A model generated the notes under the pieces. That model was not told the DNA's origin and ran no database searches. It worked only from the letters and a program-made list of their open reading frames with translations. DNA of 49,407 nucleotides from Hyphomicrobiales bacterium (GTDB taxonomy: Bacteria; Pseudomonadota; Alphaproteobacteria; Rhizobiales; JAJFHB01): positions 1 through 49,407 of the forward strand of contig JAJFHM010000115.1 of the NCBI GenBank assembly GCA_021775625.1. The letters run 5' to 3'. The translations under genes and the position numbers were made by a program. Shown here in pieces: positions 6,206 through 32,478 of this stretch; positions within the stretch are counted from its first letter, which is position 1, and the number at the start of each line of letters is the position of its first letter.

Positions 6206-7090
6206 TTACGCTCCCCGCAAGCCGAGTTTCTTGCGCGCTTCTGCCGGGGTCACGGCCCGGGCGCCCATGCGCTCGATGATTTCGATGGCGCGCTCTACAA
6301 GCTGTCCGTTCGATGCCAGCACGCCGCGGTCGAGATAGATGTTGTCCTCAAGACCAACCCGGACATTGCCGCCCATGGCGACGGCAGCGGCTGCCATTGG
6401 CATTTGCATGCGTGAAATGCCGAAGCTCGCCCAATTGGCGCCGGCCGGGACCTCGTCCTTCATGACCTTCATCATGTCGACGCTCTGGTCGGCACCCCAC
6501 GGGATGCCAAGGCAGATCTGGAACATCGGTGGCTCGGCGATGAGGCCTTCTGAAAGCATTTGTTTGGCGAAGCGGATATGGCCCAACTCAAAGACTTCGA
6601 GCTCCGGTTTGACGCCCCACTCCCTGGTGAGCTCGGCCATCTTGCGGAGATAAGGCGGGGTTGAGATGTAAATCTCGTTGCCATTGCCGAAGTTCAAGGT
6701 GCCGCAGTCGAGGCTGCAGATCTCGGGCATGCAGTCTTTCACATGGACCAATCTCTCAAGCGGGCCGATCATGTCGGTGCCGGGTCCGGGCATTGCCGGG
6801 TCATCGTCGCTCGGTGTCCAATCGCCGCCCATGCCGGCGGTCAGGTTGATCACCACATCGGTGTCGCTCGAGCGCACCCGGTCGACCACTTCCCTGAAGA
6901 GTGCAGGGTCACGTGAACCTTTTCCGGTTTCAGGGTCGCGGACGTGAATATGTGCGATCGCCGCGCCGGCTTTCGCCGCTTCTATGGCCGCATCGGCAAT
7001 CTGTTCCGGCGTCACGGGAACGCCTGGGTGTTTGCCGACCGTATCACCGGCACCTGTGACCGCGCAGGTCACCACGACATCGTAGTTCAT
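6206..7090 (-). CDS. BKACE-family (3-keto-5-aminohexanoate cleavage / dehydrocarnitine cleavage-type, DUF849) enzyme
   Basis: [17 protein letters not shown]...[14 protein letters not shown]...INLTAGMGG is characteristic of BKACE TIM barrels. I chose the ATG at 7088-7090 (GGGAGATGG upstream); the 375-aa track ORF is an N-terminal over-extension. Confidence 0.85.
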
Positions 7091-7226
7091 GATCCATCTC
7101 CCATGTTTCACCGGATTTTGTTTCGCGGCGATCAATTTTGTTGTAATTTTCTCGCCATCACTTTGGATTTTTCGACAACCGTTGTATTTTTCAACGCGAC
7201 CCAAAACCCGGTCAAATCGGTTCAAC

Positions 7227-8282
7227 ATGAAAACATTCAGCTCCTCAAGCGGATCGCCAACGCTCGTCGACTTCGTTCTCGTGCCGCGGTTCAACATGAT
7301 GGCGCTGACGGCGACCATCGAACCAATGCGCATCGCGAATTACCTCGCACCGGAAAGGCTCTATGAGTGGCACTATCTATCCGCTGAAGGTGGTGGCGTA
7401 GAGGCAAGCAACGGCATGGCGCTCGACACCATTCCGGTAGCAAAAAGAGTGGTCTCAGCCAGCGTGATATTTGCCTGCGGCAGCTGGGGTTGCGAACACT
7501 ACGAGAGCCCGGTGCTGTTTAACTGGTTGCGCCGGCAGGGGCGCAAAGGGGTTATACTGGGCGCCCTGGAACAGGGGGTTTATCTGCTTGCCCGGGCCGG
7601 CCTGATGTCCGGCCGGCGGGCGACCACACACTGGTCGTGCATCGCCGGCTTCGCCGAGCAGTTCCCGAAGATCTCGGTCAGCGAGCAACTCTTCACGGAA
7701 GACGGAAATCTGATCACCTGCGCAGGCGGCACTGCCGGCGTTGATCTGATGCTGCACCTGATTGCCCGTCAGCATGGCGATCAACTGGCCTCGGAAGTCG
7801 CCGACCAGGCTGTTCATTATCCGATCCGGCAGGCCGATACGCTGCAACGCCACACGCTCGGCGGAGCCACGGAAGATGTCCACCCGGACGTCAAGGCGGC
7901 GATCGACCTGATTGAAGCCAACATCGAAGAACCCTTGTCGGTTCCAGAGATCGCAGCAGAACTTGGAATTTCGCAGCGCCAGCTTGAACGGGTCTTCCGC
8001 CGCCATATGGGATGTTCGACGGTTCAGTTCGCCAGGCTCATAAGATTGCAGTATGCCCGGGTCCTCCTCACCAGCACCCGCATGTCGATCCGGGAAGTGT
8101 CAGCGGCCAGCGGATTCAACTCCATGTCGTATTTCTCGCAGAGCTTCGTTCAATGCTTCGGCAAGAGGCCGAGCGAGTATCGTTTGGCATGGCCTGACGA
8201 TGAGCTCGCGCCGGCCTGGCCGGGGACCGTGTTCTCTTTCACCGCGAACACCAAAATTACCTCCGAATCAAGCGCCGGCTGA
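7227..8282 (+). CDS. GlxA/CdhR/GbdR-type transcriptional regulator (DJ-1/PfpI-like domain plus AraC HTH)
   Basis: N-terminal [23 protein letters not shown] (GATase1-like sensor domain) and C-terminal AraC HTH ([23 protein letters not shown]...[11 protein letters not shown]). Divergent from the BKACE operon. Start taken at the ATG at 7227. Confidence 0.85.
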
Positions 8283-8510: not shown

Positions 8511-10892
8511 ATGCGCCCAATCAAAGCTTCAGTCATAGCGTGTCTTTCGCTTGGAGGAGCGGTGTGTCTTTACGCCGCCGATCTGATGCCGACGACTGAT
8601 AACGCTCAAGCCGGCGAAGAAATGTCGAACACGGCACAAGACAAACCTCAGCCCACAGGTGAGGATGCGCTCGCGGCACGGCTCCGTGCGTTCCTCGAAA
8701 CAAAGGAAAGCACCTCCAAGAAGGGCGACCTCAAGAGCTCTGAAGATGACGCTGCTTCCACGCCTGCTGCGGTCGAGACCGAGACGGACGACGACGCGTT
8801 GGACGCGGCAGTAGATCCAGAAGACATGGTTGAGGACGATGCTGAGGAAAGCGAAGAGGCATTGCTTGGTGAAGAGGCCGATGAAGATACGTCGGCCGAT
8901 GAAACAGCATCTGAAGACGCCGACGACGAAGAGGGTTTGCTCGCCGACGATACGGTGTCCGAAGAGACAGATAGCGACGAAGACTTGCTCGCGGACGATA
9001 CGGAAACGGAAGCAACTGAAGATGACACCGAACTGTCGGACTTGCCTGACGACGAGGACGACACCGAGGAGGACACAAACACCGAAAAGGCCGACGTTGA
9101 GGACGACAAGAAAGACAAGACGGTCACCGCGGACGCCGAACATCTGAACCTGTTTCTGGAAAACCGCTACCCGTCCGCCAACACATGCGGCGTGTGTCAC
9201 CCCAAGCACTATGACGAATGGTCGGTGTCGCAACATGCCTACGCGCAGATGAGCCCGGTCTATCTTTCCTTGAACAACCGGATCAACGAACTCTCCAACG
9301 GCTCGAATGGCGACTTCTGCCTGCGCTGCCACAGCCCGGTCGGCGCCAATCTTGGCGAAAGTTCCTTCATGTCCAATCTGGACCGGCACCCGACATCGCG
9401 CGAAGGCATTACCTGTGTCGTGTGCCACCGCATCAGCAAGGCATACAACAAGGCAAGTGGCCGGCTTGCGCTCGTCGAAGGCGGGTTGACCGACCCGGTG
9501 TTCGGGCCGACCGGCAATGACGGGCTGCAGGAGGTTCTGGCCAAACCGGAAACCTTCCGCGTCGTGACCGACCCCGACGAACCCGGACGCCAGATTCACG
9601 GCGAAGCGAAACTTTTCGATCCCATCACGACGCCGACGTTCTGCGGCTCATGCCACGACGTGACATTGTTCAACGGATTCCGGCTTGAAGAGGCGTTCAG
9701 CGAGTACCGCGTGTCGCCGGCAGCGGCCGAAGGCATCACCTGCCAGGATTGCCATATGGGCAAGGTGCAGGGCAAACCGTCGGGTTACGAGCAGGGCCCC
9801 GCAGCGATCGTCGGCGATGTCCCGACCAAGATCCGCAAGATCACCAGCCATCTGTTCTCCGGGCCGGATTATTCTCTTATTCATCCGGGCATTTTTCCGC
9901 ACAACGCGGAAGCCGCAGAGTTCAAGACGCTGCGCGAATGGTTGCAATTCAAGCACAAGGAAGGCTGGGGCACGGACAAGTTTGAGAATTCAGCGCCGGA
10001 CAATTACAAATTCCCGGAAACCTGGACTTCGATCGACGACCGCTACGATGCCCGCGAGATTCTCAACAAGCAGTTTGAGAAGCTGGAGCTGGCCCGCAAG
10101 AAGCGGTTGGAAATCCTCCGCATCGGCTTCCTTCTGGGCGATGTGGTTCCCGAACGCGCCAGCGAGAACGGCCTCTCGTTCCGGGTTCAGGTCAAAAACG
10201 GGACCAATGGCCACAACGTCCCCACCGGCTTCACCGGAGAACGCGTCATCTGGCTCGACGTCACCGTAACTGATGCCGAAGACAGCGTTGTTTTCCGGTC
10301 CGGCGACCGTGACAAGAATGGCGACCTGAAAGACGGGCACTCGTCATATGTCCATGCCGGCAAGGTCAAACGCGACAAGTATCTGTTCTCTTTGCAGTCG
10401 ACCTTTGTGGTGCAGAACGGACGTGGCGGTGAACTCGAACAGGTTATCCCGATCCCCTACCCGTCCTTTGCATTGCCGCGGGTTCTGCCATCTCCCAATT
10501 CGCTTATCTTCACTGGTGAGCCGGCGACCGAGCGCAATCACAAGAAGGGCATCGAACCCCTGGGCGAACGCTGGGCCTCTTACAAGGTCAGCCGCAACCA
10601 GCTGACCGGGAAAGGGCCGTACAAGGCGACCGTGAAACTGCGGGCGCAGGCGGTACCGGTCAACCTGCTGATCGCGATGCAGAATGTCGGCTTCGACTTC
10701 GGCATGACGCCAGCCCAACTTGGCAGAGAACTGGTTGCCGGGACACAGACGTTGTGGACGAAGGAGCTGACGTTCGATGTTGCGTCTTCGCTCACTCCGG
10801 TCGCAGCAACCACGTTCGATGCCAAGCCGGATGGCCCGATCAGCATCATCCCGACCCACCGCGCCAAAAAAAGCGAAATCGAACTCAAGTAA
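8511..10892 (+). CDS. Secreted pentahaem c-type cytochrome with a long N-terminal D/E-rich tract and a haem-free C-terminal domain
   Basis: Signal peptide MRPIKASVIACLSLGGAVCLYA. Five CxxCH motifs (CGVCH, CLRCH, CVVCH, CGSCH, CQDCH). Acidic tract at about residues 77-199. C-terminal ~330 aa have no haem motif (GHNVPTGFTGE...). AGGGGAGA lies upstream of the ATG. Confidence 0.85.
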   Translation: MRPIKASVIACLSLGGAVCLYAADLMPTTDNAQAGEEMSNTAQDKPQPTGEDALAARLRAFLETKESTSKKGDLKSSEDDAASTPAAVETETDDDALDAAVDPEDMVEDDAEESEEALLGEEADEDTSADETASEDADDEEGLLADDTVSEETDSDEDLLADDTETEATEDDTELSDLPDDEDDTEEDTNTEKADVEDDKKDKTVTADAEHLNLFLENRYPSANTCGVCHPKHYDEWSVSQHAYAQMSPVYLSLNNRINELSNGSNGDFCLRCHSPVGANLGESSFMSNLDRHPTSREGITCVVCHRISKAYNKASGRLALVEGGLTDPVFGPTGNDGLQEVLAKPETFRVVTDPDEPGRQIHGEAKLFDPITTPTFCGSCHDVTLFNGFRLEEAFSEYRVSPAAAEGITCQDCHMGKVQGKPSGYEQGPAAIVGDVPTKIRKITSHLFSGPDYSLIHPGIFPHNAEAAEFKTLREWLQFKHKEGWGTDKFENSAPDNYKFPETWTSIDDRYDAREILNKQFEKLELARKKRLEILRIGFLLGDVVPERASENGLSFRVQVKNGTNGHNVPTGFTGERVIWLDVTVTDAEDSVVFRSGDRDKNGDLKDGHSSYVHAGKVKRDKYLFSLQSTFVVQNGRGGELEQVIPIPYPSFALPRVLPSPNSLIFTGEPATERNHKKGIEPLGERWASYKVSRNQLTGKGPYKATVKLRAQAVPVNLLIAMQNVGFDFGMTPAQLGRELVAGTQTLWTKELTFDVASSLTPVAATTFDAKPDGPISIIPTHRAKKSEIELK

Positions 10893-12681: not shown

Positions 12682-13971
12682 ATGACGACATCCACAATCG
12701 CGGAAATTGGCGGACTGATGATTATCGCAGCCGTCACCCTTCAATTGCTGATGGGCCTCAGGGCCATGCGGGCACGCGCCTCCGAGCGCGGCCGGCATGG
12801 GTCTGCGATCACAGAGTTTAGCGTAGAACCAGCCGGACGGCCGGAGACCGCCACAACGTCGAACAGTGTTGAAACCGTTCTGTGGATGGGGAAAAGAAAG
12901 TTCCGCATTGCCAGGCGGATGTATGAAAACGAATCTCAGGACATCTGTTCTTACTATCTGGTGCCGCTGGACGAACGGGCCTTGCCCGGCTTTCGCCCGG
13001 GACAATTCCTGACCTTCGAGTTGCCGGTTCATGAGCAAGAGCATCCCGCGATGCGATGCTACTCTCTCTCGGAAAGCCCGACGGTGGATGAATATTACCG
13101 TATCTCGGTCAAGCGGTTGCCGGCTCCGGCAAACGCGCCTGAAAACACCCCGCCAGGCTTGTCATCCGGTTTTTTTCACGATGTTGCCCTTGAGGGCGAC
13201 ATCGTCGAAACGTTTGCTCCCACGGGCCAGTTCTGTCTCGATCAAGGCTCGAACCGTCCGGTTGTCCTGATCGCGGGAGGCGTTGGCCTGACACCTCTTT
13301 TGAGCATGCTGAACTGGCTCATCGACACTCGATCCGAGCGCGAGATCTGGCTGTTCTATGGGGTGCGGAACAGGTCCGACCACATTATGTATGACCACCT
13401 GAAGCGGGTGCGAAAAGAATGCCCGAACGTCAACATGTACATCTCCTACTCGCAGCCGACGCCAAACTGCCGGCCACGCGTTGACTACAATGTCCACGGG
13501 CACATAACAGTCGATCTCATACAATCTGTGCTGGGTGGCGATCAGTACGAATTTTACCTTTGCGGCCCAGCGGCCATGATGAATTCAATCCGGTCTGGCC
13601 TGACGGAGTGGGGCGTGCCGGCAGACGATATCCGCTCGGAAGCCTTTCAGGCACCCGCGCCTTCAAAACAGACATCCGTGGCCGACGGGACGATCGAGAC
13701 TGACGAGGAGCCAGGGGCATTTGAAGTAAAGTTCTCCCGCTCAGGCCGCATCCTGCGCTGGAACAAAGGCGTCGACACATTGCTCGAACTTGCCGAATCC
13801 AACGGTATCAAGATGCCCTGCAGCTGCCGTTCCGGGAACTGTGGTACGTGTCTCACGAGGCTCACCCAGGGAACCGTCGATTATGTTCACCCGCCGAGCA
13901 AGGAACATGAAGACGGCTCCTGCCTGCCCTGCATCGCGCGGCCGAAATCAGACCTCGTGCTCGATCTGTGA
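12682..13971 (+). CDS. Membrane-anchored ferredoxin-NAD(P)H reductase-type flavoprotein with a C-terminal plant-type [2Fe-2S] domain
   Basis: N-terminal TM helix (IAEIGGLMIIAAVTLQLLMGL) followed by a basic stretch, FAD motif RCYSLSESP, NAD(P) motif GGVGLTPLLSM, and a C-terminal C-x4-C-x2-C...C (CRSGNCGTC...CLPC). Confidence 0.85.
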   Translation: MTTSTIAEIGGLMIIAAVTLQLLMGLRAMRARASERGRHGSAITEFSVEPAGRPETATTSNSVETVLWMGKRKFRIARRMYENESQDICSYYLVPLDERALPGFRPGQFLTFELPVHEQEHPAMRCYSLSESPTVDEYYRISVKRLPAPANAPENTPPGLSSGFFHDVALEGDIVETFAPTGQFCLDQGSNRPVVLIAGGVGLTPLLSMLNWLIDTRSEREIWLFYGVRNRSDHIMYDHLKRVRKECPNVNMYISYSQPTPNCRPRVDYNVHGHITVDLIQSVLGGDQYEFYLCGPAAMMNSIRSGLTEWGVPADDIRSEAFQAPAPSKQTSVADGTIETDEEPGAFEVKFSRSGRILRWNKGVDTLLELAESNGIKMPCSCRSGNCGTCLTRLTQGTVDYVHPPSKEHEDGSCLPCIARPKSDLVLDL

Positions 13972-13998: not shown

Positions 13999-16293
13999 TT
14001 ACCTGGGAACTTTGGTGTTCATGATCGGAGCCGTCACCCCGTCTACATGGTAGTCATGACACGTCAGGCAGCCATCATTTGCGGCGTCCGCCGTGTGACA
14101 GGCCGTGCAGACGTCTTTGCCCACGGGTTTGAAATTGGACGCGAAGGTCAAGGGATCGTAATCTTCGAAACCCTTTTGATAGGCTGCGGTCTGATCCAGC
14201 TGATGGCAGCTCAAACAACCTTTTTTATCGGGAAAGCCGAAATGCGGTTCATGCATGAACCGCGTGAAGCGGCCCAATTTGGCGGCCGATGTCGCCGTCC
14301 CCCAATTCACCTGCCGGGCGTCGGCGTTGTCTGCATCAATACTGTGGCACTTCGTGCACTGGCCTTGAGCATTCTTGTCGGTCAACACCGAAAACACGGC
14401 AGTTGCGGCAGGCGATGAACGCCCTGCGGACAGGTCGAACCACGCTTTAAAGAAAGTGTCGGCATGACCCACCGGCTTGTAGAGAACGGAATATTCCTGG
14501 CGGTACCAACCGCCGAACTCGGCCCAGGTCTGGGCGTCGACATTCAGAGGAGAGGCTGCGGGTTCCTCCTCGACGTCGTCCTCCTCAGATGAAACCTCCT
14601 CGCCGCTCGCCGTGTCGTCTGAAGCGGCCTCCTCCAGATCGTCGCCGTCGTCTTCGGACAGGATATCGGCGTCATCGTCTGTATCGGTACTGTCATCATC
14701 CGCGGTTGCGGCACTATCGGGGTCCTGTCCCGCGGTGGGTTCGCCAAGACCCGACAATTCGGTTCTGAACAAAGCGTCGGTCGAGTCCACCGCGCGGGCA
14801 AGATCACCCGCATCAATAGGGCGATGCGCCATCAATTCCGCTTCAACATCGGGCAACCAGTCGCGGATGGCGCCTGCGACCACGTCACGGGGCAGACTTG
14901 CGGTCAGCCTGGTGAGGGTGTCCGGGGCCATATTTCCGGCGTTATCAAAGCGCTTGAGCACCATGCTCGGTCTGACCGCCGAAAGCGCGTAGATCAGGGT
15001 CTTTATTTCCCAGGCAAACCACTCGACCGCGCGAAGCTCGCTCTCCGACGCCCCGTTCAGGTTCAAAAGATCCAGTTCGTTCACCAAGGCCAGCAAGGCC
15101 CTGCGATCTTCGTTCCAGCCGAGCAGCATGGTCGCAAACGGCGTTACGTTCGCTTCGGAGGCTTCCGGCCATTTTCCAACGTCAATGTTCCTGTCCGCGA
15201 GGGTTTGGACGTCGAGACCGGGAAGTGTGAGAAACTCAATACCCTGCGGCCCTGAAAGCCGTTCAGTGCCGGCAATCTGGTGCAGGTGACAGGAAGAACA
15301 GACCGTCTCGAACGGTTTGACGTTCATGTTCTTCTTGTCGGCGGCGAGCGTGTGGCAATCTGCGCAGGCCTCGGGAACCTGCTGAGATTGATCCTTCCTG
15401 GCGCGGGTCTTCTCGAAATGCTCTCCGAAGTGAGAGGCATGATCGAAGTTCGTCCGGGTGCGGCGGGCAAAAGGGTACTTGCGAAAACCGGGGTGCCCAT
15501 CCTCAAAGCTTGTGAACTGCGCTGCATGGCAGCCCTGACACCGATCTGCTGAAACCGCCGAAAGATCGGCAGCCACGCCACGGTGTTCCTTGTGACAGGA
15601 GGCGCAGAAAATACCATCCCCCACCGCTCTCGCAGTTGGGAATACCGCGTTGCCGACCCAACGCGACCAGGGGGTGCCTGTGGCGGTTTGCCCGGAACGG
15701 TTCCGGTCGGTCAGCGCTTTCAGCTTGTCCAGAGGCTGGCCGTGTGGTTGCAGAGCGTCTGTACTGAGCTGATGGCAGGACAGGCAGGCCTTGCTGTCTT
15801 GGCGTTCTGACGACGGCTTCACAATGGCATGGAGCCAGGCAAACCCTCCTTCAGTGATGTTTGAATGACAGGTGCCGCACTCTGCAATCGGGCTGTGCCC
15901 GGCGTGCATCGGACCAGGCACGATGATCATGGCGTCGCCGGCATAGGTCAATGCCAGCACGAATACTGCGAAAATCAGCGCCGCAGTCCAGCGTGTCACG
16001 GCAGTGCGCACTGACCGCAGGCTCCGGATCGGTCGGCACGGAAGTATGGCATGGGCACACATGCCGTCCTCACCCGGCCCCTCGGGACACGGCCCTCCCC
16101 TTGATGCCGGGCGGCGACACCGCCAGCGCTCGGCTGCCATTGCCGGCACGCACTCGAATGTCGCCTGGCATCCGCCGCGGTGATCGGGGCCCATGGGACA
16201 GGCGCGGCCCGCAGCCGACCTGCCGCAAATCCACTTGTCGTCGGATCTGCCGAACAAACCACCGCCGGTGATTGAGCCAAAGGAGAACGTCAA
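13999..16293 (-). CDS. Membrane-anchored decahaem c-type cytochrome with an N-terminal Cys-rich module and an internal acidic linker
   Basis: Ten CxxCH motifs: six in residues ~139-336 and four in ~646-746. TM/signal-anchor RWTAALIFAVFVLALTYAG. D/E linker at about 524-578. TTG start 3 nt after the upstream stop. An alternative ATG at residue 78 would remove the Cys-rich part. Confidence 0.8.
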   Translation of the reverse strand: MTFSFGSITGGGLFGRSDDKWICGRSAAGRACPMGPDHRGGCQATFECVPAMAAERWRCRRPASRGGPCPEGPGEDGMCAHAILPCRPIRSLRSVRTAVTRWTAALIFAVFVLALTYAGDAMIIVPGPMHAGHSPIAECGTCHSNITEGGFAWLHAIVKPSSERQDSKACLSCHQLSTDALQPHGQPLDKLKALTDRNRSGQTATGTPWSRWVGNAVFPTARAVGDGIFCASCHKEHRGVAADLSAVSADRCQGCHAAQFTSFEDGHPGFRKYPFARRTRTNFDHASHFGEHFEKTRARKDQSQQVPEACADCHTLAADKKNMNVKPFETVCSSCHLHQIAGTERLSGPQGIEFLTLPGLDVQTLADRNIDVGKWPEASEANVTPFATMLLGWNEDRRALLALVNELDLLNLNGASESELRAVEWFAWEIKTLIYALSAVRPSMVLKRFDNAGNMAPDTLTRLTASLPRDVVAGAIRDWLPDVEAELMAHRPIDAGDLARAVDSTDALFRTELSGLGEPTAGQDPDSAATADDDSTDTDDDADILSEDDGDDLEEAASDDTASGEEVSSEEDDVEEEPAASPLNVDAQTWAEFGGWYRQEYSVLYKPVGHADTFFKAWFDLSAGRSSPAATAVFSVLTDKNAQGQCTKCHSIDADNADARQVNWGTATSAAKLGRFTRFMHEPHFGFPDKKGCLSCHQLDQTAAYQKGFEDYDPLTFASNFKPVGKDVCTACHTADAANDGCLTCHDYHVDGVTAPIMNTKVPR

Positions 16294-16296
16294 GGC

Positions 16297-17109
16297 TTAA
16301 GGCACTCCCGCGGTGTAGGCGTAAATGACGGCGACGTGGAGCACGGCAAGCACGATCATTCCGTAGGTCGCAGGGATATGGACGAACAACCAGAGCCGCA
16401 GCAGCAGCTCATATGCATATCGGTTGTTCAGTGTGTTCTTCTCTGTAAGCACCTCCCGCATAGCCTGCATGGTTTGCTTGCCGCCATCGTCGAGACGTTT
16501 TTCAAGGCTGTCCATCTCCTCGCACAGGCGCCTGAACGTGGAAGGCGAACGCCGAAAAAGCCCAACGGTGCTGCTTGGGCCATTGAGAAATCCGGATAAC
16601 GTGTTGGCGTAGAAGTCGGTGATGCTCGGCGATGCGGCAACGCCTCCCACCCCCAGCACCAAGTCGTCGGCACGCTGCAGCAATTCAGTTTGCGCTGCCG
16701 GAAAATCATCAAAGGCAGTTCCGCCCCGGTTCTGTTCCAACTTTGACGGAACGCTGCGTGTCAGGTAGGCGCCGAATACGCCGCTCACAGCCAGGATCAC
16801 GAACAGTGCCCACAGTGCGGTTTCGAATATACCGGTCGGCCAGGCATATTGAGTGTGCAACGCAAACGCGGCCAGCAGGAAGAAACCTGCATAGATGTGC
16901 GCCCGCATCCACGACGACACATTGCCCAGGGGCAGCAGCGGGAACTTCCGGCGCAGGCTGAACAGCACTTGAACCCCACACCCCAGGAGCAGAATCCAAC
17001 CATCCAGAAAGCGCGCATCGCGCAGCGAAGCGTCGTAAACGCCGACCAGCCAGAACATCGCCGCAACGGCGAGAGCGGTCAGCAGGCTGTGTCGTATGAG
17101 ATCGCGCAT
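16297..17109 (-). CDS. Integral membrane protein (about 5 TM) with two H-x13-H pairs; candidate dihaem b-type cytochrome
   Basis: Hydrophobic helices; HIYAGFFLLAAFALH and HIPATYGMIVLAVLH sit on two helices predicted to run in the same direction; a ~120-aa soluble loop lies between TM4 and TM5. ATG at 17107-17109 is preceded by GGAG. The gene overlaps the upstream gene by about 31 nt. Confidence 0.65.
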   Translation of the reverse strand: MRDLIRHSLLTALAVAAMFWLVGVYDASLRDARFLDGWILLLGCGVQVLFSLRRKFPLLPLGNVSSWMRAHIYAGFFLLAAFALHTQYAWPTGIFETALWALFVILAVSGVFGAYLTRSVPSKLEQNRGGTAFDDFPAAQTELLQRADDLVLGVGGVAASPSITDFYANTLSGFLNGPSSTVGLFRRSPSTFRRLCEEMDSLEKRLDDGGKQTMQAMREVLTEKNTLNNRYAYELLLRLWLFVHIPATYGMIVLAVLHVAVIYAYTAGVP

Positions 17110-18743
17110 AGCCACTCCGAAAGGCCATTGGTGTCGCGCAGATCGACCCGCACAAGCGCGTCGTGCGGACAGGCGCGCTCACAGGCCGGGCCGCCCTTGC
17201 GGCCGGCACACAGGTCGCATTTTTCCGCCCGCTGAATTTGAACGCCATCCTCGTCGACCAGAAACGCTCCACCGGGATCGCGCACGTCAGCCATTTGAAT
17301 ATTGTCATAGGGGCACGCCTTGGCGCAGGCCGCACAGCCGATGCAGGTTGCCTCATCGATCACCACGGTACCGCTCACTTTGTCACGGTGAATGGCACCG
17401 GTGGGACAGTCGACCAGGCAAACCGGATCGAAACAATGCATGCAGGCCTGGGCAACCATCAGGTTGTGATGTGTGGGGCCTTTTCGGGCAAAACGCGCAA
17501 CACCGTCATGTGCCGCGGCGCAGGCGCGGACGCAGTCGTCGCAGTTGACGCAGCGTTCGGTGTTTATCGCCATCGCCATGGCCCCGTTGGTGTAGCGGTT
17601 GTCGACAAAAAACTCCGTGTAGGACCGCGGCAGGTTCGCCTTGGCGGATGGTTTTGCCGAACCGAGCGTCGCCCTGGCCTTGCGGGCGTACCTCTCCGGC
17701 AGATCGGACAGCACGTGCGCCGCAACGATCTGTGTCGGGATCCGCACCAGATCGGCATAGCCGACCGCACGAAAACCGTTCGGGAACTTGAGCTCGCCCT
17801 GCCCTTCAGCGGTGCCCAGAATTTGCGGCAGGCCGATGATGCCATTTTTCGTGATGTACCCCGTCGTCCGTTCCTCATGTCCGAGCCGTTCGGTGACACG
17901 GATGGTTCCTGAGTGGACCAGCAACAGACCATCGAGATAATGATCCTGCTCGGCAATAATGGGTTCCCGCTCGATGGCCGGGACATGACCGTTTGCGCTG
18001 GAAGCGGATTTTTGGAACCGGTGTGTCCAGTCAACATCGCCATAGCGCTCGAACGTTGCGTTCTCGGCAATCTGAAGCAGTGTCCGGTCATCGACATTCG
18101 CAAACAACGAGCTTCCCTGAAGGCAGTTCCACAAGCCCCACTGACGATACTGATCCTGCATTCTCTCGCGGAACGGATCCGACCAGCGCATGAGCTCCCG
18201 TAGTGCCGGCCACCGCAGCTCTAGGAGCAGTGTATCGTCGTCTTCAACCATGACCGAGGCGGTTCGCGGAGATCTCGAAAATGCACCCAGAACACCGAAC
18301 AGATCATAACGGCCAAGGGACAGCACCGGAGGGCTGCAGACGCCGGGCTTGAGCGATGGATCGGGGTCCAACCCTTGGTTCCTGCGCGCCGTTTGCCGCA
18401 GACCCGTGAGTGCGCGAAGCAGCGATCCGATCCGGGCTGCCGGTTTGGATCCTTCACTGCTCCGCACCGGCATCAGGCTCTTTACGTTGCCCCTGAGAAC
18501 GACGAATACAGAGGTGCCGTACTCACCGGCGCGATAAACCATGTCGCCTTTTGAATAGCGGACAACGCGGGTGTCGTTGGCAATGATCTCGGACAGCGGG
18601 CTTGCGTCCGGGAATGCGTCGGCATCGACATCTTCAAACAGCGGAATGGAAAGCATGGCCTTCACATCCTGCGTCGGCACCGGCGTTCCCCCGAATGGTA
18701 TCGCCCACTTCCTTGGTCTTTCCGTCTGCTGGACCCTCACCAA
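17079..18743 (-). CDS. Cytoplasmic protein with two cyclic-nucleotide-binding-like domains fused to a DmsB/NrfC-type 4x[4Fe-4S] ferredoxin module
   Basis: cNMP-like beta-roll regions (VVRYSKGDMVYRAGEYGTSVFVVLRGNV; LLLVHSGTIRVTER). Four Cys groups: CVNCDDCVRAC, CMHCFDPVCLVDCP, CIGCAACAKACP, CDLCAGRKGGPACERACP. No Tat or Sec signal. GGAGG lies upstream of TTG/GTG starts at 18743/18740. Confidence 0.8.
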   Translation of the reverse strand: MVRVQQTERPRKWAIPFGGTPVPTQDVKAMLSIPLFEDVDADAFPDASPLSEIIANDTRVVRYSKGDMVYRAGEYGTSVFVVLRGNVKSLMPVRSSEGSKPAARIGSLLRALTGLRQTARRNQGLDPDPSLKPGVCSPPVLSLGRYDLFGVLGAFSRSPRTASVMVEDDDTLLLELRWPALRELMRWSDPFRERMQDQYRQWGLWNCLQGSSLFANVDDRTLLQIAENATFERYGDVDWTHRFQKSASSANGHVPAIEREPIIAEQDHYLDGLLLVHSGTIRVTERLGHEERTTGYITKNGIIGLPQILGTAEGQGELKFPNGFRAVGYADLVRIPTQIVAAHVLSDLPERYARKARATLGSAKPSAKANLPRSYTEFFVDNRYTNGAMAMAINTERCVNCDDCVRACAAAHDGVARFARKGPTHHNLMVAQACMHCFDPVCLVDCPTGAIHRDKVSGTVVIDEATCIGCAACAKACPYDNIQMADVRDPGGAFLVDEDGVQIQRAEKCDLCAGRKGGPACERACPHDALVRVDLRDTNGLSEWLCAISYDTAC

Positions 18744-18790: not shown

Positions 18791-19795
18791 TCACTTCGCC
18801 GGCTTACCTTTGTATTTGTTTGGTTTCGGGATCATCGCGTCGAGTTTCGCGAAGCGTTTCCCGTCATACCGTGTGACCAGCGCCACCGCCTCAACGGCGA
18901 TCTTGTCGGCCACCCTTGTCAGCACCTTGTCGTTGTTGAGCTTGAGCTTTGCCTTCTTCGACAAAGCCACAATTTTCTTGAGCTCTTCGACCTTCGGAAG
19001 CGCCTTCGCGATCGCCCTGAGCTTCTTGCGCGCCTTCGCTGCCCGCTTTGCCATCTTGACCGCGTATTTCTTTTTCTTGGTTGCCTTGCCGACGGCCCGA
19101 ATGGCGGTTTCGTATTCAACAATTGCGCCCACAAGGAACATCATCCGCTTGCGCGCAGGGGTTGCCTTCTTGTTCTCTTCGCCCTTCGTGTACCAGACAT
19201 TGTGGCGCACTTCGCCCTGTGACCAGGACACCAGCTCAAACTTGCTGCCGGCGGGATGTCCGCCCACGTTGACCAGCTTTTCCTGCGGCACAACGTGGCA
19301 GCTGTAACAATTCTTCGCCAGCTTGTACAAGGCACTGGGCCTGATCAATCCGAGCTTCTCGGACTTCTGCCAGCGCGCCCTGGCCTGGGCTTTAGATTCA
19401 AGCTCCTTCTTCTTGTTGCCGCTAAATTCCGCGTGAACTTTGATCCAGTCCTTGCCTTCCGAATGACACAGCTCGCAGGAAATCCCCGCAATCGGTTCGG
19501 TCTTCTTGCCCTTCGTCTGATTTGTGAAATGGCAGTTCAGGCACAGGCTCTCCGACTTGATGCGCTTGATCTTCATTTTCCTGGAGATCTTTTTGGCCTG
19601 TTTGCTGCGCGGCATTTTGCGGAAGGTCGTGAAGTGGTGCGTGCTTCTCCACACTGTCGCCTCGTCCCGGTGACATTCCGCACATTCGTCAGGCCCTTCA
19701 ATTTTTTTCGGATTTGTATCCGCACTTGCCCCGGTGCCCGACACCAGCGCGATGATGGCGCCGGCCACGGCCATTTTCATAATCTGAAATTGCAT
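18791..19795 (-). CDS. Secreted tetrahaem c-type cytochrome (c554-like) with a strongly basic K-rich C-terminal region
   Basis: Signal peptide MQFQIMKMAVAGAIIALVSGTGASA. Four CxxCH motifs: CAECH, CLNCH, CELCH, CYSCH. The C-terminal ~130 aa are about 30% K/R by hand count. Confidence 0.85.
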   Translation of the reverse strand: MQFQIMKMAVAGAIIALVSGTGASADTNPKKIEGPDECAECHRDEATVWRSTHHFTTFRKMPRSKQAKKISRKMKIKRIKSESLCLNCHFTNQTKGKKTEPIAGISCELCHSEGKDWIKVHAEFSGNKKKELESKAQARARWQKSEKLGLIRPSALYKLAKNCYSCHVVPQEKLVNVGGHPAGSKFELVSWSQGEVRHNVWYTKGEENKKATPARKRMMFLVGAIVEYETAIRAVGKATKKKKYAVKMAKRAAKARKKLRAIAKALPKVEELKKIVALSKKAKLKLNNDKVLTRVADKIAVEAVALVTRYDGKRFAKLDAMIPKPNKYKGKPAK

Positions 19796-20402: not shown

Positions 20403-21137
20403 TCAGTCAACTGTCGTGCTGCGGTTTTCCAGAGAATTTAACTCCAGGAACCGCTGGAGCGCTTTCTTGGCGTCGGCCCGGATGAGCCGCGGGGGCTGAC
20501 CTTCTCCGGAGATGATTACGTAGCGCCACAAAGGAGATGTGAGAGCTTTCTCACACCTTTCTTCCGGCGTGGAGAACAAGGAGATGTTGAAGGTCTGATC
20601 AATGTCTGAAATCTGGTCGCCCTGCATCACGAGCATTGGAATGTCCGGGCTTGTCCGAACCGGTTTATCGTCTTCGAGATCACAGTGGTGACCTGTGATG
20701 ATCACACTGCTCACCGGCACATCCAGGGACAGGGCGACACTGCCGCCTTCCCCATGTCCCCACAGGATAATCGGCTCATCCGGGTAACGTTGCTTCAGTA
20801 TTCGCAGTGACCGGACCGCCTGACGGAGCCTGAGTTCGATTATCTGCTCGAGGTCGGCGTACGGGTAGGCACAGGCCGCCGTGGGTCTGGTCTCAGCAAA
20901 GCTGTCCGGCACGAAGAGCTTGTAACCGTTACGCTCGAAATACTCGTTCCAGTCGACCGCCGGAAATACTGCGCAACCGTGCAGGGAGAGCACGATACCG
21001 CGTTCCGGCGGGGCCTTGGATGTGTATCCCTGTTCTAGCGGTGGGTCGGCTTCGCCTCGGGCACCGGTACCGGGAATCAGGCACAGGGCGAACCCTATCA
21101 TGGCCAGGCCAAGGCGAAGCATTCGGGTCGCGTCCAT
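20403..21137 (-). CDS. Secreted alpha/beta-hydrolase-fold-like protein with an atypical nucleophile elbow
   Basis: ATG at 21135-21137 with AGGAG upstream. Signal peptide MDATRMLRLGLAMIGFALCLIPGTGA. Fold-like pattern VLSLHGC...ILWGHGEGGSVAL...MLVMQGDQ. The family assignment is weak. Confidence 0.5.
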   Translation of the reverse strand: MDATRMLRLGLAMIGFALCLIPGTGARGEADPPLEQGYTSKAPPERGIVLSLHGCAVFPAVDWNEYFERNGYKLFVPDSFAETRPTAACAYPYADLEQIIELRLRQAVRSLRILKQRYPDEPIILWGHGEGGSVALSLDVPVSSVIITGHHCDLEDDKPVRTSPDIPMLVMQGDQISDIDQTFNISLFSTPEERCEKALTSPLWRYVIISGEGQPPRLIRADAKKALQRFLELNSLENRSTTVD

Positions 21138-21292
21138 CTGGAAACTCCTGAACTTTCTGCAGACCTCACCTCCATGATAAGCAATTCGTTGGCACAATCC
21201 AGACGAAGCGCCACGGACGAACGCCAATTTGCACCCGGCATTGCAGCAGATAGACAATCAAATGCGCCTGCCGCATTATCTCCGACTTCGAA

Positions 21293-29728: not shown

Positions 29729-31177
29729 ATGATATTTGAGAAGCGACGTGCGCGATTGAAGTCCAGCCTGGCTGTGTTCTCGGCTTTGGCTCTGGGGGCC
29801 TGCGCAACGCCGAATGAGGAAGCTGCGTTCCAGCATGTGAACGCGCTTGTAACGGCGCGAACGAAAGTACCTGTGGTCTGGCACACCACCGATGAATCAC
29901 GGGCCTCGGCCGACTATGAAGTGCGTGGGCTGCTGGCCGAACCATTGTCCAAGAACGGCGCTGTAAAACTTGCGTTTTTGCGCAACCCGGCCATTCAGGC
30001 GACATTGGCGACACTCGGTATTTCGGAAGCAGACGTGGCGCAGGCCGGGCGGATCGAAAATCCTGTGATTTCGATAGAACGGGTCGCCACCCATGGCATC
30101 CTGGAAATTAACCGTCAGGCAATCATCAGTATCCTTTCACTGGCCACCATCGGCGGGCGCAGTGAAATCGCCAAAAACAATGCGGAAAAGACCCGCTACC
30201 TGGCGGCGCTTGATATTGCCGGCACCGCAAATGAAGTTACCACCGCATGGGTCGAAGCTGTTGGCGCACGCGAACGGGTGGCCATCATGAACCGTATCTT
30301 TGCGTCGTCGAAAGCAGCCCGCGATCTGGCAATGCGCCTGGCCGAAGCGGGCAGCATGACGGAGATCGATCGGGCCAAGATCGAGGCCTTCCATGCAGAA
30401 GTCGCCGGGCAGCGCGGGCAATTGCGGGCCGGCGCACAAATGGCGCGCGAGCGGCTGATCAGGGCCATGGGACTGTGGGGCAAGGAGGTTGCATTCAAAC
30501 TTCCCTGGCAACTTCCGCAGCTGCCAGTCCGGGCGAAGCGGTTCGGTGACCTGGAAGCCACCGCGGTCGCGAAGCGCCTCGACATCAGAGCTGCCCGCAA
30601 GGATGTCGAAGCCCTGAAGGAAACCTGGGGGCTCACCGGCTTCACCTCGGTCCTCAATTTGCTGGAGCTTGGGCTCAACTGGGACACGGAGCGTGAGAAG
30701 GATGACGGCGAATCGCGCAAAAACAACCTGAAAGGTTTCGAGTTCGAGATCGCCATCCCGATCTTCGATCCGGGCGATGCCAAACGGTCCCGTGCCAAGT
30801 GGGTCTATATGCAGTCCGTTGAGAAACTGAAGTCGCTCGCCATCACGGCACGTTCGGAAGTGCGCGAGGCCTATGTCGGCTATCGCTCGAAACTCGAACT
30901 GGCGCAGCACTATCAGCGCACCATCGTGCCGCTGCGGGCGAGGATCTCGGAGGAGGAACTGTTGCGCTACAACGGCATGCTGGCCAGCGTGTTCGAGCTT
31001 TTGACGGCGGCCCGGCAGCATGCCGAAGCCTCAATGACGGCTCTCGACGCCAAACGCGATTTCTGGCTGGCGGATGGGCACATGGATGCCGTCTTGTTGA
31101 CCGGCTCAGCCGGCGCGGCGCCCGGCAGCATGGACAGCATGGAAATGGCCAATGCCGGCGGCGATCAGGAACATTGA
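29729..31177 (+). CDS. TolC-family outer-membrane efflux lipoprotein (NodT/CusC-like)
   Basis: Lipobox LALGAC after a signal peptide. Two repeated coiled-coil/beta halves are typical of OMF proteins. Size is 482 aa. Confidence 0.8.
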   Translation: MIFEKRRARLKSSLAVFSALALGACATPNEEAAFQHVNALVTARTKVPVVWHTTDESRASADYEVRGLLAEPLSKNGAVKLAFLRNPAIQATLATLGISEADVAQAGRIENPVISIERVATHGILEINRQAIISILSLATIGGRSEIAKNNAEKTRYLAALDIAGTANEVTTAWVEAVGARERVAIMNRIFASSKAARDLAMRLAEAGSMTEIDRAKIEAFHAEVAGQRGQLRAGAQMARERLIRAMGLWGKEVAFKLPWQLPQLPVRAKRFGDLEATAVAKRLDIRAARKDVEALKETWGLTGFTSVLNLLELGLNWDTEREKDDGESRKNNLKGFEFEIAIPIFDPGDAKRSRAKWVYMQSVEKLKSLAITARSEVREAYVGYRSKLELAQHYQRTIVPLRARISEEELLRYNGMLASVFELLTAARQHAEASMTALDAKRDFWLADGHMDAVLLTGSAGAAPGSMDSMEMANAGGDQEH

Positions 31178-31197
31178 ACGTGAAGGAGCATTCTAAG

Positions 31198-32478
31198 ATG
31201 GACAGACGCAAATTTATGGCGACATCGGCTGCCGCTGTGCTGGCCGCCGGTGCGGTGCCCCGCACCTCGATGGCCAGCGTGCCGGAAGCCGCAATAACCA
31301 AGAGCGCGGCAATGGTGGTGTCGGACCTTCCCAGTGAAGGACGGCCATACATGCCCGTGGCAACCCTCAATGGCTGGTCGGCGCCGTGGCGCATCAAAAA
31401 CGGCTGGAAGGAATTCCACTTGATCGCGGAACCGGTTGAGCGGGAAATTGCACCCGGCATGACCGGCTTCCTGTGGGGCTATAACGGGCAGTGTCCGGGA
31501 CCGACCATTGAATGTGTCGAAGGCGACATGGTGCGCATATTCGTCACCAACAAACTGCCGGAACACACAACCATCCACTGGCACGGCATATTGCTGCCTG
31601 CGGGCATGGATGGTGTCGGCGGATTGAACCAACCCCAGATCAAGCCCGGTGAAACCTTCGTCTACGAGTTCGAGATGAAGAAGTCCGGCACCTTCATGTA
31701 TCACCCGCATGCCGATGAGATGGTGCAAATGGCGATGGGTATGATGGGCTTCTTTGTGGTGCACCCGAAGGACGTGGAACAGCACAAGGTGGACCGCGAC
31801 TTTGTCTTCCTGATGAGCGCCTACGATATCGATCCGGGCGCCTATACGCCGAAGATCAACACCATGTCCGATTTCAACCTGTGGACATGGAACAGCCGCG
31901 TCTTTCCGGGTATCGACCACTTGGTGATCAGGCAGGGAGACCGGGTGCGCGTTCGCTTCGGCAATCTCACCATGACCAATCACCCGATCCACATGCATGG
32001 ATATGACTTCGAAGTCACCTGCACGGATGGCGGCTGGGTGCCGGAGGGTGCGAGGTGGCCGGAGGTCACGGTTGACTGTGCCATCGGGCAGATGCGGGCG
32101 TTCGAATTTGACGCCAATGCGCCCGGCGACTGGGCCATTCACTGCCACAAGTCACATCACACCATGAACCCGATGGGCCATGACGTGCCGACGATGATCG
32201 GTGTCGACCATCGCGGCATCGCCAAACGGATCGTACAGCTGTCGCCGGACTATATGGTCATGGGCGAACGTGGCATGGCCGATATGGGCGAAATGGAGAT
32301 GGAGCTGCCGCGCAACACCCTGCCGATGATGACCGGCTGGGGGCAGTTCGGCCCAATTGAAATGGGCGGAATGTTTTCCGTTGTGAAGGTGCGCGAAAAT
32401 CAGCCGCATCGCGATTTTACAGATCCGGGCTGGTACGACTACCCGGAAGGAACGGTTGCATACAAGTACACCAGCTAG
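31198..32478 (+). CDS. Tat-exported multicopper oxidase (CopA/PcoA-like copper oxidase)
   Basis: Twin-arginine signal MDRRKFMATSAAAVLAAGAV. Copper-ligand motifs HWHG, HPH, HPIHMHG, HCHKSHH. GAAGGAG lies 9 nt upstream of the ATG at 31198. Confidence 0.9.
   Translation: MDRRKFMATSAAAVLAAGAVPRTSMASVPEAAITKSAAMVVSDLPSEGRPYMPVATLNGWSAPWRIKNGWKEFHLIAEPVEREIAPGMTGFLWGYNGQCPGPTIECVEGDMVRIFVTNKLPEHTTIHWHGILLPAGMDGVGGLNQPQIKPGETFVYEFEMKKSGTFMYHPHADEMVQMAMGMMGFFVVHPKDVEQHKVDRDFVFLMSAYDIDPGAYTPKINTMSDFNLWTWNSRVFPGIDHLVIRQGDRVRVRFGNLTMTNHPIHMHGYDFEVTCTDGGWVPEGARWPEVTVDCAIGQMRAFEFDANAPGDWAIHCHKSHHTMNPMGHDVPTMIGVDHRGIAKRIVQLSPDYMVMGERGMADMGEMEMELPRNTLPMMTGWGQFGPIEMGGMFSVVKVRENQPHRDFTDPGWYDYPEGTVAYKYTS

Follow-up and report, generated by a model that had tools for sequence, protein, structure and literature searches.

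PtdE, a tandem cyclic-nucleotide-binding module fused to a four-cluster ferredoxin, as a candidate regulated iron-sulfur subunit of the Ptd multihaem cytochrome system

Introduction

A 49,407-nt stretch of DNA from a Hyphomicrobiales bacterium (assembly GCA_021775625.1, contig JAJFHM010000115.1, forward strand; the whole stretch is called the window below) carries a minus-strand gene whose 554-aa product, PtdE, joins two cyclic-nucleotide-binding (CNB) domains to a four-cluster ferredoxin. Judged by its sequence and its neighbours, the gene is ptdE, an ortholog within a cluster, ptdABCDEFG, that has been published as a bioinformatic description. The explanation that best fits the evidence as a whole is that PtdE is a regulated cytoplasmic iron-sulfur (Fe-S) subunit of the Ptd electron-transfer system, and we regard this as about evenly balanced between right and wrong.

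Elbon, Stewart and Glass (bioRxiv 10.1101/2023.11.21.568154) took the name of the cluster from its penta-, tetra- and deca-haem proteins. In their description PtdA is a pentahaem protein, PtdB a porin, PtdC an FAD/NAD(P) oxidoreductase, PtdD a tetrahaem protein, PtdF a 'ferric reductase-like' membrane protein and PtdG a decahaem protein; PtdE is a CNB/Fe-S protein that was given two 4Fe-4S clusters. That work already describes, though only at the bioinformatic level, both the fusion of domains and the genes around it. In our literature searches the ptd gene names appeared in no other paper, and a 2026 preprint on multihaem cytochromes of peat leaves the ptd system unmentioned.

Results

Identification of ptdE

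A single 554-codon open reading frame (ORF) on the minus strand fills 17079..18743 exactly, so the gene that an earlier note on this DNA had placed there, with no strand given, is real. The plus-strand reading of the same interval is full of stop codons and was ruled out. The sequence GGAGG lies 4 nt ahead of a TTG at 18743 and 7 nt ahead of a GTG at 18740, and family alignments show that the homologs share the motif R-x-(R/K)-W-x-x-P-F-G found at aa 9-17; because this N-terminal motif is conserved, the start of ptdE lies at or beside 18743. The C-terminus of the window protein is about 7 residues longer than the family consensus. An AlphaFold2 model of PtdE, built with 92 homologs, has a mean predicted local distance difference test score (pLDDT) of 86 and a predicted template modelling score (pTM) of 0.85, and is confident except at aa 95-135. 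A hydrophobic 19-mer and a twin-arginine motif were both sought in the PtdE sequence and neither was found, and a Pfam scan of the protein gives no helix-turn-helix (HTH) and no other output domain. PtdE as a CRP/FNR-type transcription factor with Fe-S clusters was ruled out, since there is no Pfam HTH and the C-terminal half is all ferredoxin.

The window holds genes for a five-haem, a porin-like, an FNR-like, a four-haem, a CNB-ferredoxin, a four-His membrane and a ten-haem protein, which is the published ptdA-G set (Table 1), and the published PtdE has the same domain composition and seven-gene context as the window PtdE. The published cluster is one co-directional operon, whereas in the window ptdABC (plus strand) and ptdDEFG (minus strand) are convergent, a layout shared by other Hyphomicrobiales loci. 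All seven ptd genes are also found in Roseibium sp. Sym1 (locus L001) and in an ENA contig, and the window PtdE is 43% identical to the Roseibium protein (P0062) over 97% of its length (E 1e-148). The identification was made by matching the gene set to the description in the paper and by homology to Roseibium sp. Sym1.

The four-cluster ferredoxin module

Three sets of relatives were used for comparison: 121 metagenomic homologs of PtdE, 83 species-level genome orthologs from several phyla, and 82 related loci examined over 10 kb by tblastn with the window's Ptd proteins. The earlier note had recognised four complete Cys groups in the C-terminal part of the protein, and these stand as C398-x2-C-x2-C-x3-C, C434-x2-C-x4-C-x3-CP, C467-x2-C-x2-C-x3-CP and C509-x2-C-x8-C-x3-CP, with all 16 cysteines invariant in 83/83 orthologs. 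The pattern fits that of the HycB/HydN/DmsB family (I, CxxCxxCxxxC; II, CxxCx4CxxxCP; III, CxxCxxCxxxCP; IV, CxxCxnCxxxCP), and the 16 cysteines would suffice as ligands for four predicted [4Fe-4S] clusters, whereas the published description of PtdE has two. Several 4Fe-4S dicluster Pfam models score above their gathering cut-offs on aa 390-540, Fer4_7 (E 3.5e-13) and Fer4_11 (E 4.3e-12) among them.

The best matches of the module in the PDB are HycB3 of the hydrogen-dependent CO2 reductase (HDCR; 7qv7_A, E 7e-19), an aldehyde-oxidoreductase Fe-S subunit (8c0z_C) and the formate-hydrogenlyase subunit HycB (7z0s_B). HydN (2.3e-18), AegA, DmsB (1.4e-16) and DsrO head the NCBIfam ranking. The best NCBIfam score, 66.3 bits for HydN, compares with an equivalog cut-off of 260, and all other models also score below their cut-offs; with scores so far under the cut-offs, PtdE was ruled out as an ortholog of HydN, AegA, DmsB, DsrO or NrfC. 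By these sequence comparisons the module belongs to the HycB/HydN/DmsB fold family, yet it is the ortholog of no named subunit.

HycB3, HycB and HydN are cytoplasmic subunits. These nearest relatives, together with the lack of a hydrophobic segment or twin-arginine motif, place PtdE in the cytoplasm. A periplasmic molybdoenzyme subunit of the DmsB/NrfC type was ruled out because PtdE has neither a twin-arginine motif nor a hydrophobic segment and no molybdopterin gene accompanies it, none having been found among the 30 window ORFs scanned. The earlier note's label 'DmsB/NrfC-type' is apt for the four-cluster fold family, but the nearest solved or curated relatives are the cytoplasmic HycB/HydN proteins, slightly ahead of DmsB/NrfC, and the adjoining partner, PtdF, is a putative dihaem membrane protein and no molybdoenzyme. 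The same note's statement that there is no molybdopterin subunit, HTH or twin-arginine signal in or near the gene holds for PtdE itself and for the 30 scanned ORFs, with the qualification that an AraC-family HTH gene lies about 9 kb off.

The tandem CNB module

The two cNMP-binding regions that the earlier note had proposed in the N-terminal part of PtdE are borne out by profile and structure searches. The Pfam family cNMP_binding (PF00027) matches PtdE in three stretches with an E value of 1.7e-15 and 57.2 bits, against a cut-off of 27.5. In a Foldseek search the best PDB matches of the model were the tandem CNB-A/B domains of protein kinase A (PKA) regulatory subunits and of the cGMP-dependent protein kinase PKG I-beta (E 3e-15 to 2e-14, probability 1.0). 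A phmmer search of the PDB with the N-terminal half gave weak CNB matches only (best E 0.0084), so that the fold was established from profiles and structure. The Pfam score, the AlphaFold2 model and the Foldseek matches all support the CNB fold of an eight-stranded beta-roll flanked by helices, and the N-terminal ~350 aa are, as modelled, two CNB domains in PKA-like tandem (aa ~30-190 and ~205-345).

In the window CNB-A the phosphate-binding cassette reads FGVLGAFSRSPRTASV, in which Arg160-Thr-Ala is kept and Val151 stands where Glu is usual. In CNB-B the equivalent segment, FGL...FRAVGY (G304-L305 ... R325-A), has Leu305 at the Glu position and a longer loop. The description of the cassettes in the earlier note as degenerate in places is thus accurate for both domains. 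Across the family CNB-A is far more regular, with the consensus FGE[IL]AAL[ST]R[ST]PR[ST]AT[VI] and a Gly-Arg gap of 10 residues. The Arg is found in 121/121 metagenomic homologs and the Glu in 92/121; among the genome orthologs 76/83 have the Glu, 78/83 the Arg and 71/83 both. Such conservation of the canonical cassette in phyla so far apart speaks for a real ligand of phosphate-ribose type. In a Hyphomicrobiales subclade comprising the window and loci L002-L005, L010 and L069, Val, Ala or Ile stands in for the Glu and the cassette drifts at further positions too, and this relaxation makes cyclic-nucleotide binding least certain for the window PtdE itself.

CNB-B shows a different kind of conservation. 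Leu occupies the Glu position in 73/83 orthologs, Arg325 is kept in 74/83 and Ala326 in 81/83, and the family keeps a motif FGLxEI...SLRAIGYVD in which the Gly never varies and the Arg-Ala hardly does. CNB-B appears from this to be under selection, but not as a classical cyclic-nucleotide site. The segment aligned to query aa 90-140, which holds the insertion in the CNB-A beta-roll, varies from 8 to 260 aa across the orthologs, with a median of 74.

Some variant PtdE homologs carry FHA domains, which bind phosphopeptides, at three different positions that all lie in the N-terminal half. P0224 has two N-terminal FHA domains (E 7e-33); P0261 has one, read from the sequence and not scanned with Pfam; P0208 has an FHA domain inside the CNB-A insertion (2.7e-17); and P0297 has one between the two CNB domains (2e-10). 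These gains suggest Ser/Thr-kinase input in the four lineages, and the repeated recruitment of FHA domains into this half of the protein supports a regulatory-input role for it.

Distribution of PtdE and conservation of its neighbours

The fusion is no isolated case: PtdE relatives are present in at least 576 species-representative genomes of several phyla, and the gene belongs to the published cluster. A word-indexed search with PtdE gave 3252 matches at E <=1e-5, of which the top 120 (E <1e-142) all carry PF00027 and Fer4. The closest genome ortholog among the matches listed, from Hyphomicrobiales, is 57% identical, so the window adds a divergent ptdE ortholog from an uncultured Hyphomicrobiales-like organism. 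Searched alone, the N-terminal 385 aa matched 524 clusters at 50% identity, 265 of them at E <=1e-10; most are 520-620 aa long, which indicates that this type of CNB tandem is essentially confined to the ferredoxin fusion.

The best 80 loci include Alphaproteobacteria (Hyphomicrobiales, Roseibium, Tistlia and Ferruginivarius), Planctomycetota (Lacipirellula, Bythopirellula, Phycisphaeraceae and Ca. Uabimicrobium), Verrucomicrobiota, Kiritimatiellae, Nitrospinota, SAR324 and Gammaproteobacteria. Going by record titles, which include metagenome-assembled genomes (MAGs) of Verrucomicrobiota, Kiritimatiellae, SAR324 and Nitrospinota, the cluster reaches beyond the marine and high-salinity taxa of the published description.

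Within 10 kb, PtdF was found in 80 of the 82 loci, PtdG in 77, PtdD in 76, PtdC in 69 and PtdA/B in 49, and the order D-E-F-G is nearly invariant; most cases of a missing gene are truncated contigs. The fusion is thus widespread and has ptdD, ptdF and ptdG as its regular neighbours (76-80 of 82 loci), and the constant core of the cluster is ptdC-D-E-F-G. Many Planctomycetota loci (L026, L029, L031, L040, L043, L044, L050, L051 and others) have only this core within 10 kb; as they lack ptdA and ptdB, the porin and pentahaem pair falls outside it.

PtdF, the likely membrane partner of PtdE

The ptdF start lies within the final 10 codons of ptdE, so that the genes share 31 nt (17079..17109); the overlap in L001 and L002 is only 4 nt. 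PtdF, numbered from the ATG at 17109, has four His that never vary; they form two pairs, H71/H85 and H244/H258, each with a spacing of exactly 14 residues. An AlphaFold2 model of PtdF (pLDDT 86) has five transmembrane (TM) helices: four are N-terminal, a helical domain (aa 122-207) comes after them, and the end of a very long helix forms TM5. The model places H71/H85 on TM3 and H244/H258 on TM5. This fits the pattern of ferric-reductase-domain and cytochrome b561-type dihaem membrane proteins, in which two His pairs with a spacing of 13-14 residues sit on two parallel TM helices. Basic residues suggest a cytoplasmic position for both the helical domain and the TM2-TM3 loop (RRK). With that topology one His of each pair would lie near each membrane face, the classical bis-haem arrangement, and the four His are putatively arranged to hold two b hemes. 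PtdF homologs are annotated as hypothetical proteins only, with recurrent sub-threshold Pfam matches to DUF4405 (51/72), prokaryotic cytochrome b561 (Ni_hydr_CYTB, 47/72) and Ferric_reduct (12/72).

In three divergent metagenomic homologs, P0198 (843 aa), P0215 (856 aa) and P0271, PtdE and PtdF are fused in frame, and the PtdF parts of P0198 and P0215 match at E 1e-51 and 3e-41. Two further candidates, P0232 and P0236, were not counted, as their C-terminal parts read as frameshifted. That PtdE is the cytoplasmic Fe-S partner of PtdF is the claim about its role in which we have good confidence.

The ptd cluster and its surroundings

The coordinates of the ptd genes and of the features of PtdE are collected in Table 1. 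The flanking ORFs of ptdE have four (ptdD), no (ptdF) and ten (ptdG) CXXCH motifs. The ptdB product has a signal-peptide-like segment and an outer-membrane-protein-like C-terminus (...VQVVY), and a Pfam scan of it gave no match. Near the N-terminus of PtdC lies a hydrophobic helix (aa 4-29), and the protein also has a C-x4-C-x2-C motif.

Table 1. Positions in the window of the ptd genes and of the features of PtdE
Feature	Position	Strand	Remarks
ptdA, secreted pentahaem cytochrome c	8511..10892	+	5 CXXCH, signal peptide, Pfam Cytochrome_C554
ptdB, putative outer-membrane porin, 540 aa	11005..12630	+	longest ORF from 10777; likely start ATG 11005
ptdC, membrane-anchored FNR-like NAD(P)H oxidoreductase with C-terminal plant-type [2Fe-2S] domain	12682..13971	+	NAD_binding_1 7.8e-18, Fer2 1.6e-12
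ptdG, membrane-anchored decahaem cytochrome c, 764 aa	13999..16293	-	10 CXXCH; TM aa 97-127; Pfam MtrC/MtrF domain, Paired_CXXCH
ptdF, membrane protein, putative dihaem b cytochrome, 270 aa	16297..17109	-	ATG 17109
ptdE, cytoplasmic protein, tandem CNB module and four-cluster ferredoxin, 554 aa	17079..18743	-	stop codon 17079-17081
PtdE four-cluster ferredoxin module, aa 389-540	17124..17579	-	Cys groups from C398, C434, C467, C509
PtdE CNB-B, degenerate, aa ~205-345	17709..18131	-	third Pfam stretch; second beta-roll in model; Foldseek tandem matches
PtdE CNB-B cassette-equivalent I303-G-L ... F-R325-A-V-G-Y329	17757..17837	-	loop longer than canonical
PtdE CNB-A, aa ~30-190	18174..18656	-	Pfam stretch aa 61-89; phmmer to PKG CNB; Foldseek PKA-R/PKG tandem
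PtdE CNB-A phosphate-binding cassette F149-G-V-L-G-A-F-S-R-S-P-R160-T-A-S-V164	18252..18299	-	Gly-to-Arg spacing 10 residues
PtdE disordered insertion in CNB-A beta-roll, aa 95-135	18339..18461	-	pLDDT <50
PtdE N-terminal motif RPRKWAIPF(G), aa 9-17	18693..18719	-	family consensus RPxRWDxPFG; F17 nearly invariant; pLDDT >90
ptdD, periplasmic tetrahaem cytochrome c directly upstream of ptdE	18791..19795	-	4 CXXCH, signal-peptide-like N-terminus, Cytochrome_C554 1.7e-14

Several features of the cytochromes were noted in passing. Ahead of its single TM helix and ten periplasmic hemes, PtdG has a Cys-rich domain of ~90 aa (aa 1-96; 16006..16293, minus strand) with 9-10 conserved Cys and the consensus YERPNQKWVCG..PC..GPD..G.C....C.P....RW.C.R.....G.C..GP.PDG.C. 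The domain is conserved, being absent from 3/45 listed orthologs (L007, L011 and L018, out of L001-L046). Because of the position of the TM helix and the missing signal peptide it is probably in the cytoplasm, and it may serve as a docking site on that side of the membrane that binds Zn or Fe-S. In PtdA the signal peptide is separated from the first haem motif by a long, highly acidic low-complexity stretch rich in D, E and T (aa 30-200; ~8598..9110, plus strand). The C-terminal half of PtdD (aa 200-334; 18794..19198, minus strand) is strongly Lys-rich (KKKKYAVKMAKRAAKARKKLRAIAK...) and has no haem motifs.

Beyond the Ptd genes the flanks are unrelated: a CoA-transferase, acyl-CoA enzymes, an AraC/DJ-1 regulator, FAD oxidoreductases, a multicopper oxidase and efflux components. 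The regulator (7089..8282, plus strand) is an AraC-family HTH protein with a DJ-1/PfpI-like N-terminal domain (GlxA-like), and its gene ends ~230 bp upstream of ptdA. No equivalent AraC-family gene was evident upstream of the Roseibium L001 cluster, which makes a link to ptd doubtful. Directly upstream of the ptdD-G unit is a 284-aa ORF (20403..21257, minus strand) with a signal-peptide-like segment and no Pfam match. Farther off, a gene for a TolC-like OEP efflux protein (29729..31177, plus strand) overlaps by 4 nt with a multicopper oxidase gene (31174..32478; Cu-oxidase_3, Cu-oxidase_2), a pair near the cytochrome cluster that may be a copper-handling or metal-oxidation module.

Discussion

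A proposed role for PtdE

In the mechanism that we propose, the four clusters of PtdE would form a wire ~30-40 A long that takes up electrons at the cytoplasmic face of the membrane. The likely donor would be NAD(P)H, by way of the FAD and [2Fe-2S] centres of membrane-anchored PtdC, and the wire would deliver to the inner haem of PtdF, from which electrons would cross the membrane to periplasmic PtdD and anchored PtdG; where present, PtdA and PtdB at the outer membrane would come next. Such a path would bypass the quinone pool and would resemble NOX/FRE-type export with an Fe-S relay inserted. Electron export of this kind spends reducing power and depolarises the membrane, and these costs make rapid post-translational gating plausible. 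The CNB tandem would be the control. A ligand at CNB-A, cAMP or cGMP in the orthologs with a canonical cassette, would reposition the tandem against the ferredoxin module, or alter the docking of PtdC or PtdF, and so open or close the path. For the window PtdE, with Val for Glu and a degenerate CNB-B, the affinity or the ligand may differ.

The earlier note had suggested direct allosteric control of an electron-transfer wire. The architecture speaks for this idea: PtdE offers neither an HTH nor another output domain, which leaves the CNB tandem only electron transfer or the assembly of the complex to act on. The canonical CNB-A of 71/83 orthologs and the FHA gains add to the case, and the relaxing cassette of the window protein takes from it. 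The comparative sequence evidence strengthens the regulatory idea, least so for the window PtdE. Ligand gating of PtdE across the family seems to us possible, at somewhat less than an even chance, and gating of the window PtdE itself by a cyclic nucleotide unlikely. The mechanism in its full form, a second-messenger-gated electron valve in which cAMP or cGMP at CNB-A (or phospho-Thr in the FHA variants) switches quinone-independent NAD(P)H export to multihaem cytochromes, is put forward tentatively and is doubtful as a whole. Literature searches found no publication that proposes ligand gating of PtdE.

A number of observations weigh against the reading of PtdE as a regulated subunit of an export path. 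CNB-fold domains elsewhere in the CRP/FNR superfamily bind haem, other small molecules, or nothing. The window PtdE lacks the CNB-A cassette Glu, its nearest relatives drift further (for example RSH, RGH or RSS for R-[ST]-A), and CNB-B lacks the Glu in essentially all family members. No nucleotide cyclase was found among the 30 window ORFs scanned, the 82 related loci not having been searched for cyclases. As to the path itself, PtdC was not found within 10 kb in 13/82 loci, many of them truncated contigs, and PtdC with NAD(P)H as donor and outward flow, a reading of gene content only, has in our estimate slightly better than an even chance. Among solved cytochrome b and ferric-reductase domains PtdF finds no significant match (best Foldseek E against the PDB, 0.15), and a PDB profile search with it gave nothing relevant. 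The PtdE-PtdF fusions are metagenomic ORFs and could be artefacts of an indel where the two genes overlap. Finally, the authors who named the cluster call its function "completely unknown" (bioRxiv 10.1101/2023.11.21.568154); by the same token, the family has no established function that would set aside the regulatory idea.

Alternative explanations

The possibility that PtdE is a constitutive wire, with a CNB tandem that binds no ligand and serves only as a structural or docking scaffold for PtdC, the PtdF helical domain or the PtdG Cys-rich N-terminus, has about one chance in four in our judgement. It would account for the family-wide degeneracy of CNB-B, with its Leu at the Glu position and long loop, for the wide variation in the length of the CNB-A insertion, and for the window subclade, which is losing CNB-A cassette residues yet keeps the whole cluster; the pTM of the single-chain model likewise suggests a fixed arrangement of domains. 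It is hard to square with the exact Glu/Arg/Thr-Ala-Thr cassette at canonical spacing in 71/83 orthologs, which is difficult to explain without a phosphate-ribose ligand, and the independent FHA gains in the N-terminal half point to signal input. A gated wire whose CNB domains sense some other ligand (a nucleotide, a redox-active cofactor or a metabolite) is less probable again, and would apply especially to the window subclade. There the Val for Glu in CNB-A and, in close relatives, changes in the residue after Arg-Ser/Thr favour it, as do the separate motif kept by CNB-B, which suggests selection for a non-classical function, and the diversity of ligands bound in the CRP/FNR-fold superfamily. 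Most orthologs, though, have a textbook cyclic-nucleotide cassette in CNB-A, and Epac-type CNB domains indicate that cAMP can still bind when only the Glu is lost.

The remaining alternative concerns the direction of flow: electrons might pass inward, from an extracellular or periplasmic donor through PtdF and PtdE to NAD(P)+ by way of PtdC or to a ferredoxin-dependent enzyme, or the periplasmic haem proteins might serve nitrogen-oxide or hydroxylamine catalysis instead of extracellular electron transfer. The occurrence of ptd in nitrite oxidisers, the COG that PtdA shares with NrfA and the annotation of PtdC as hydroxylamine-oxidoreductase-linked (bioRxiv 10.1101/2023.11.21.568154) all fit this. 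So do the matches of PtdA and PtdD to the cytochrome c554 family and the 33/82 loci in which PtdA/B was not found within 10 kb, which leave the porin outside the constant core. Reduction of NAD(P)+ (~-320 mV) against the membrane potential would be unfavourable without a donor of very low potential, and the cluster encodes nothing like an ion pump for coupling; we consider this the least probable of the three. Whichever of them might hold, the identification of the gene as ptdE is unchanged.

Comparison with known systems

The HycB/HydN proteins (HycB3 of HDCR, 7qv7_A; HycB, 7z0s_B) and the Tat-exported DmsB, NrfC and DsrO share the four Cys-group pattern and the fold, and are inter-subunit electron wires. 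Unlike PtdE, they have no CNB domains, and the partner of a HycB/HydN/DmsB-type protein is a hydrogenase, a formate dehydrogenase or a molybdoenzyme, whereas that of PtdE is a small putative dihaem membrane protein. The tandem CNB domains of PKA-R and PKG, the best structural matches to the whole PtdE model, are 12-16% identical in sequence and share with most PtdE orthologs the canonical CNB-A cassette FGE...PR[ST]A[ST]. PtdE differs from them in the disordered, variable CNB-A insertion and in the missing Glu of CNB-B; moreover, PKA and PKG regulate a kinase, whereas the regulated partner in PtdE would be an Fe-S domain in cis.

With NOX, FRE and MsrQ proteins the Ptd system shares the logic of an FNR-like NAD(P)H module (PtdC) and two His pairs on TM3 and TM5 (PtdF). 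In contrast to NOX/FRE proteins, PtdF has five predicted TM helices and an additional helical domain of ~85 aa and no significant match to solved NOX/FRD structures, Ptd would put a [2Fe-2S] and four [4Fe-4S] clusters between flavin and hemes, and its acceptors would be multihaem c cytochromes. Searches of the literature for a natural CNB-ferredoxin precedent, or for the cluster under other names, returned only the ptd preprint and synthetic ferredoxin switches. The latter, split or fused ferredoxins (PMC11886610), embody the same concept of ligand- or partner-dependent electron transfer, but they are synthetic [2Fe-2S] constructs, unlike the natural PtdE.

Relative to the published description, the new points read from the sequences are the predicted four clusters in place of two, the canonical CNB-A cassette of most orthologs and its decay in the window's clade, the FHA-bearing variants, the apparent PtdE-PtdF fusions, the conserved Cys-rich N-terminal domain of PtdG and the wider taxonomic range.

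In no other Ptd subunit are a signalling module and the electron path brought together, and PtdE is therefore the most direct experimental handle on the Ptd system. Even if there were no gating, PtdE would still be needed to reconstruct the Ptd electron path. If the CNB tandem does gate the flow, it would mean control of respiration or extracellular electron transfer by direct allostery on an Fe-S wire, a principle so far only engineered, and would also point to a quinone-independent transfer of cytoplasmic reducing power across the inner membrane. PtdE would then be the first natural ligand-gated ferredoxin, a post-translational switch for an extracellular-type electron-transfer pathway that spans Alphaproteobacteria, Planctomycetota, Verrucomicrobiota, Nitrospinota and others.

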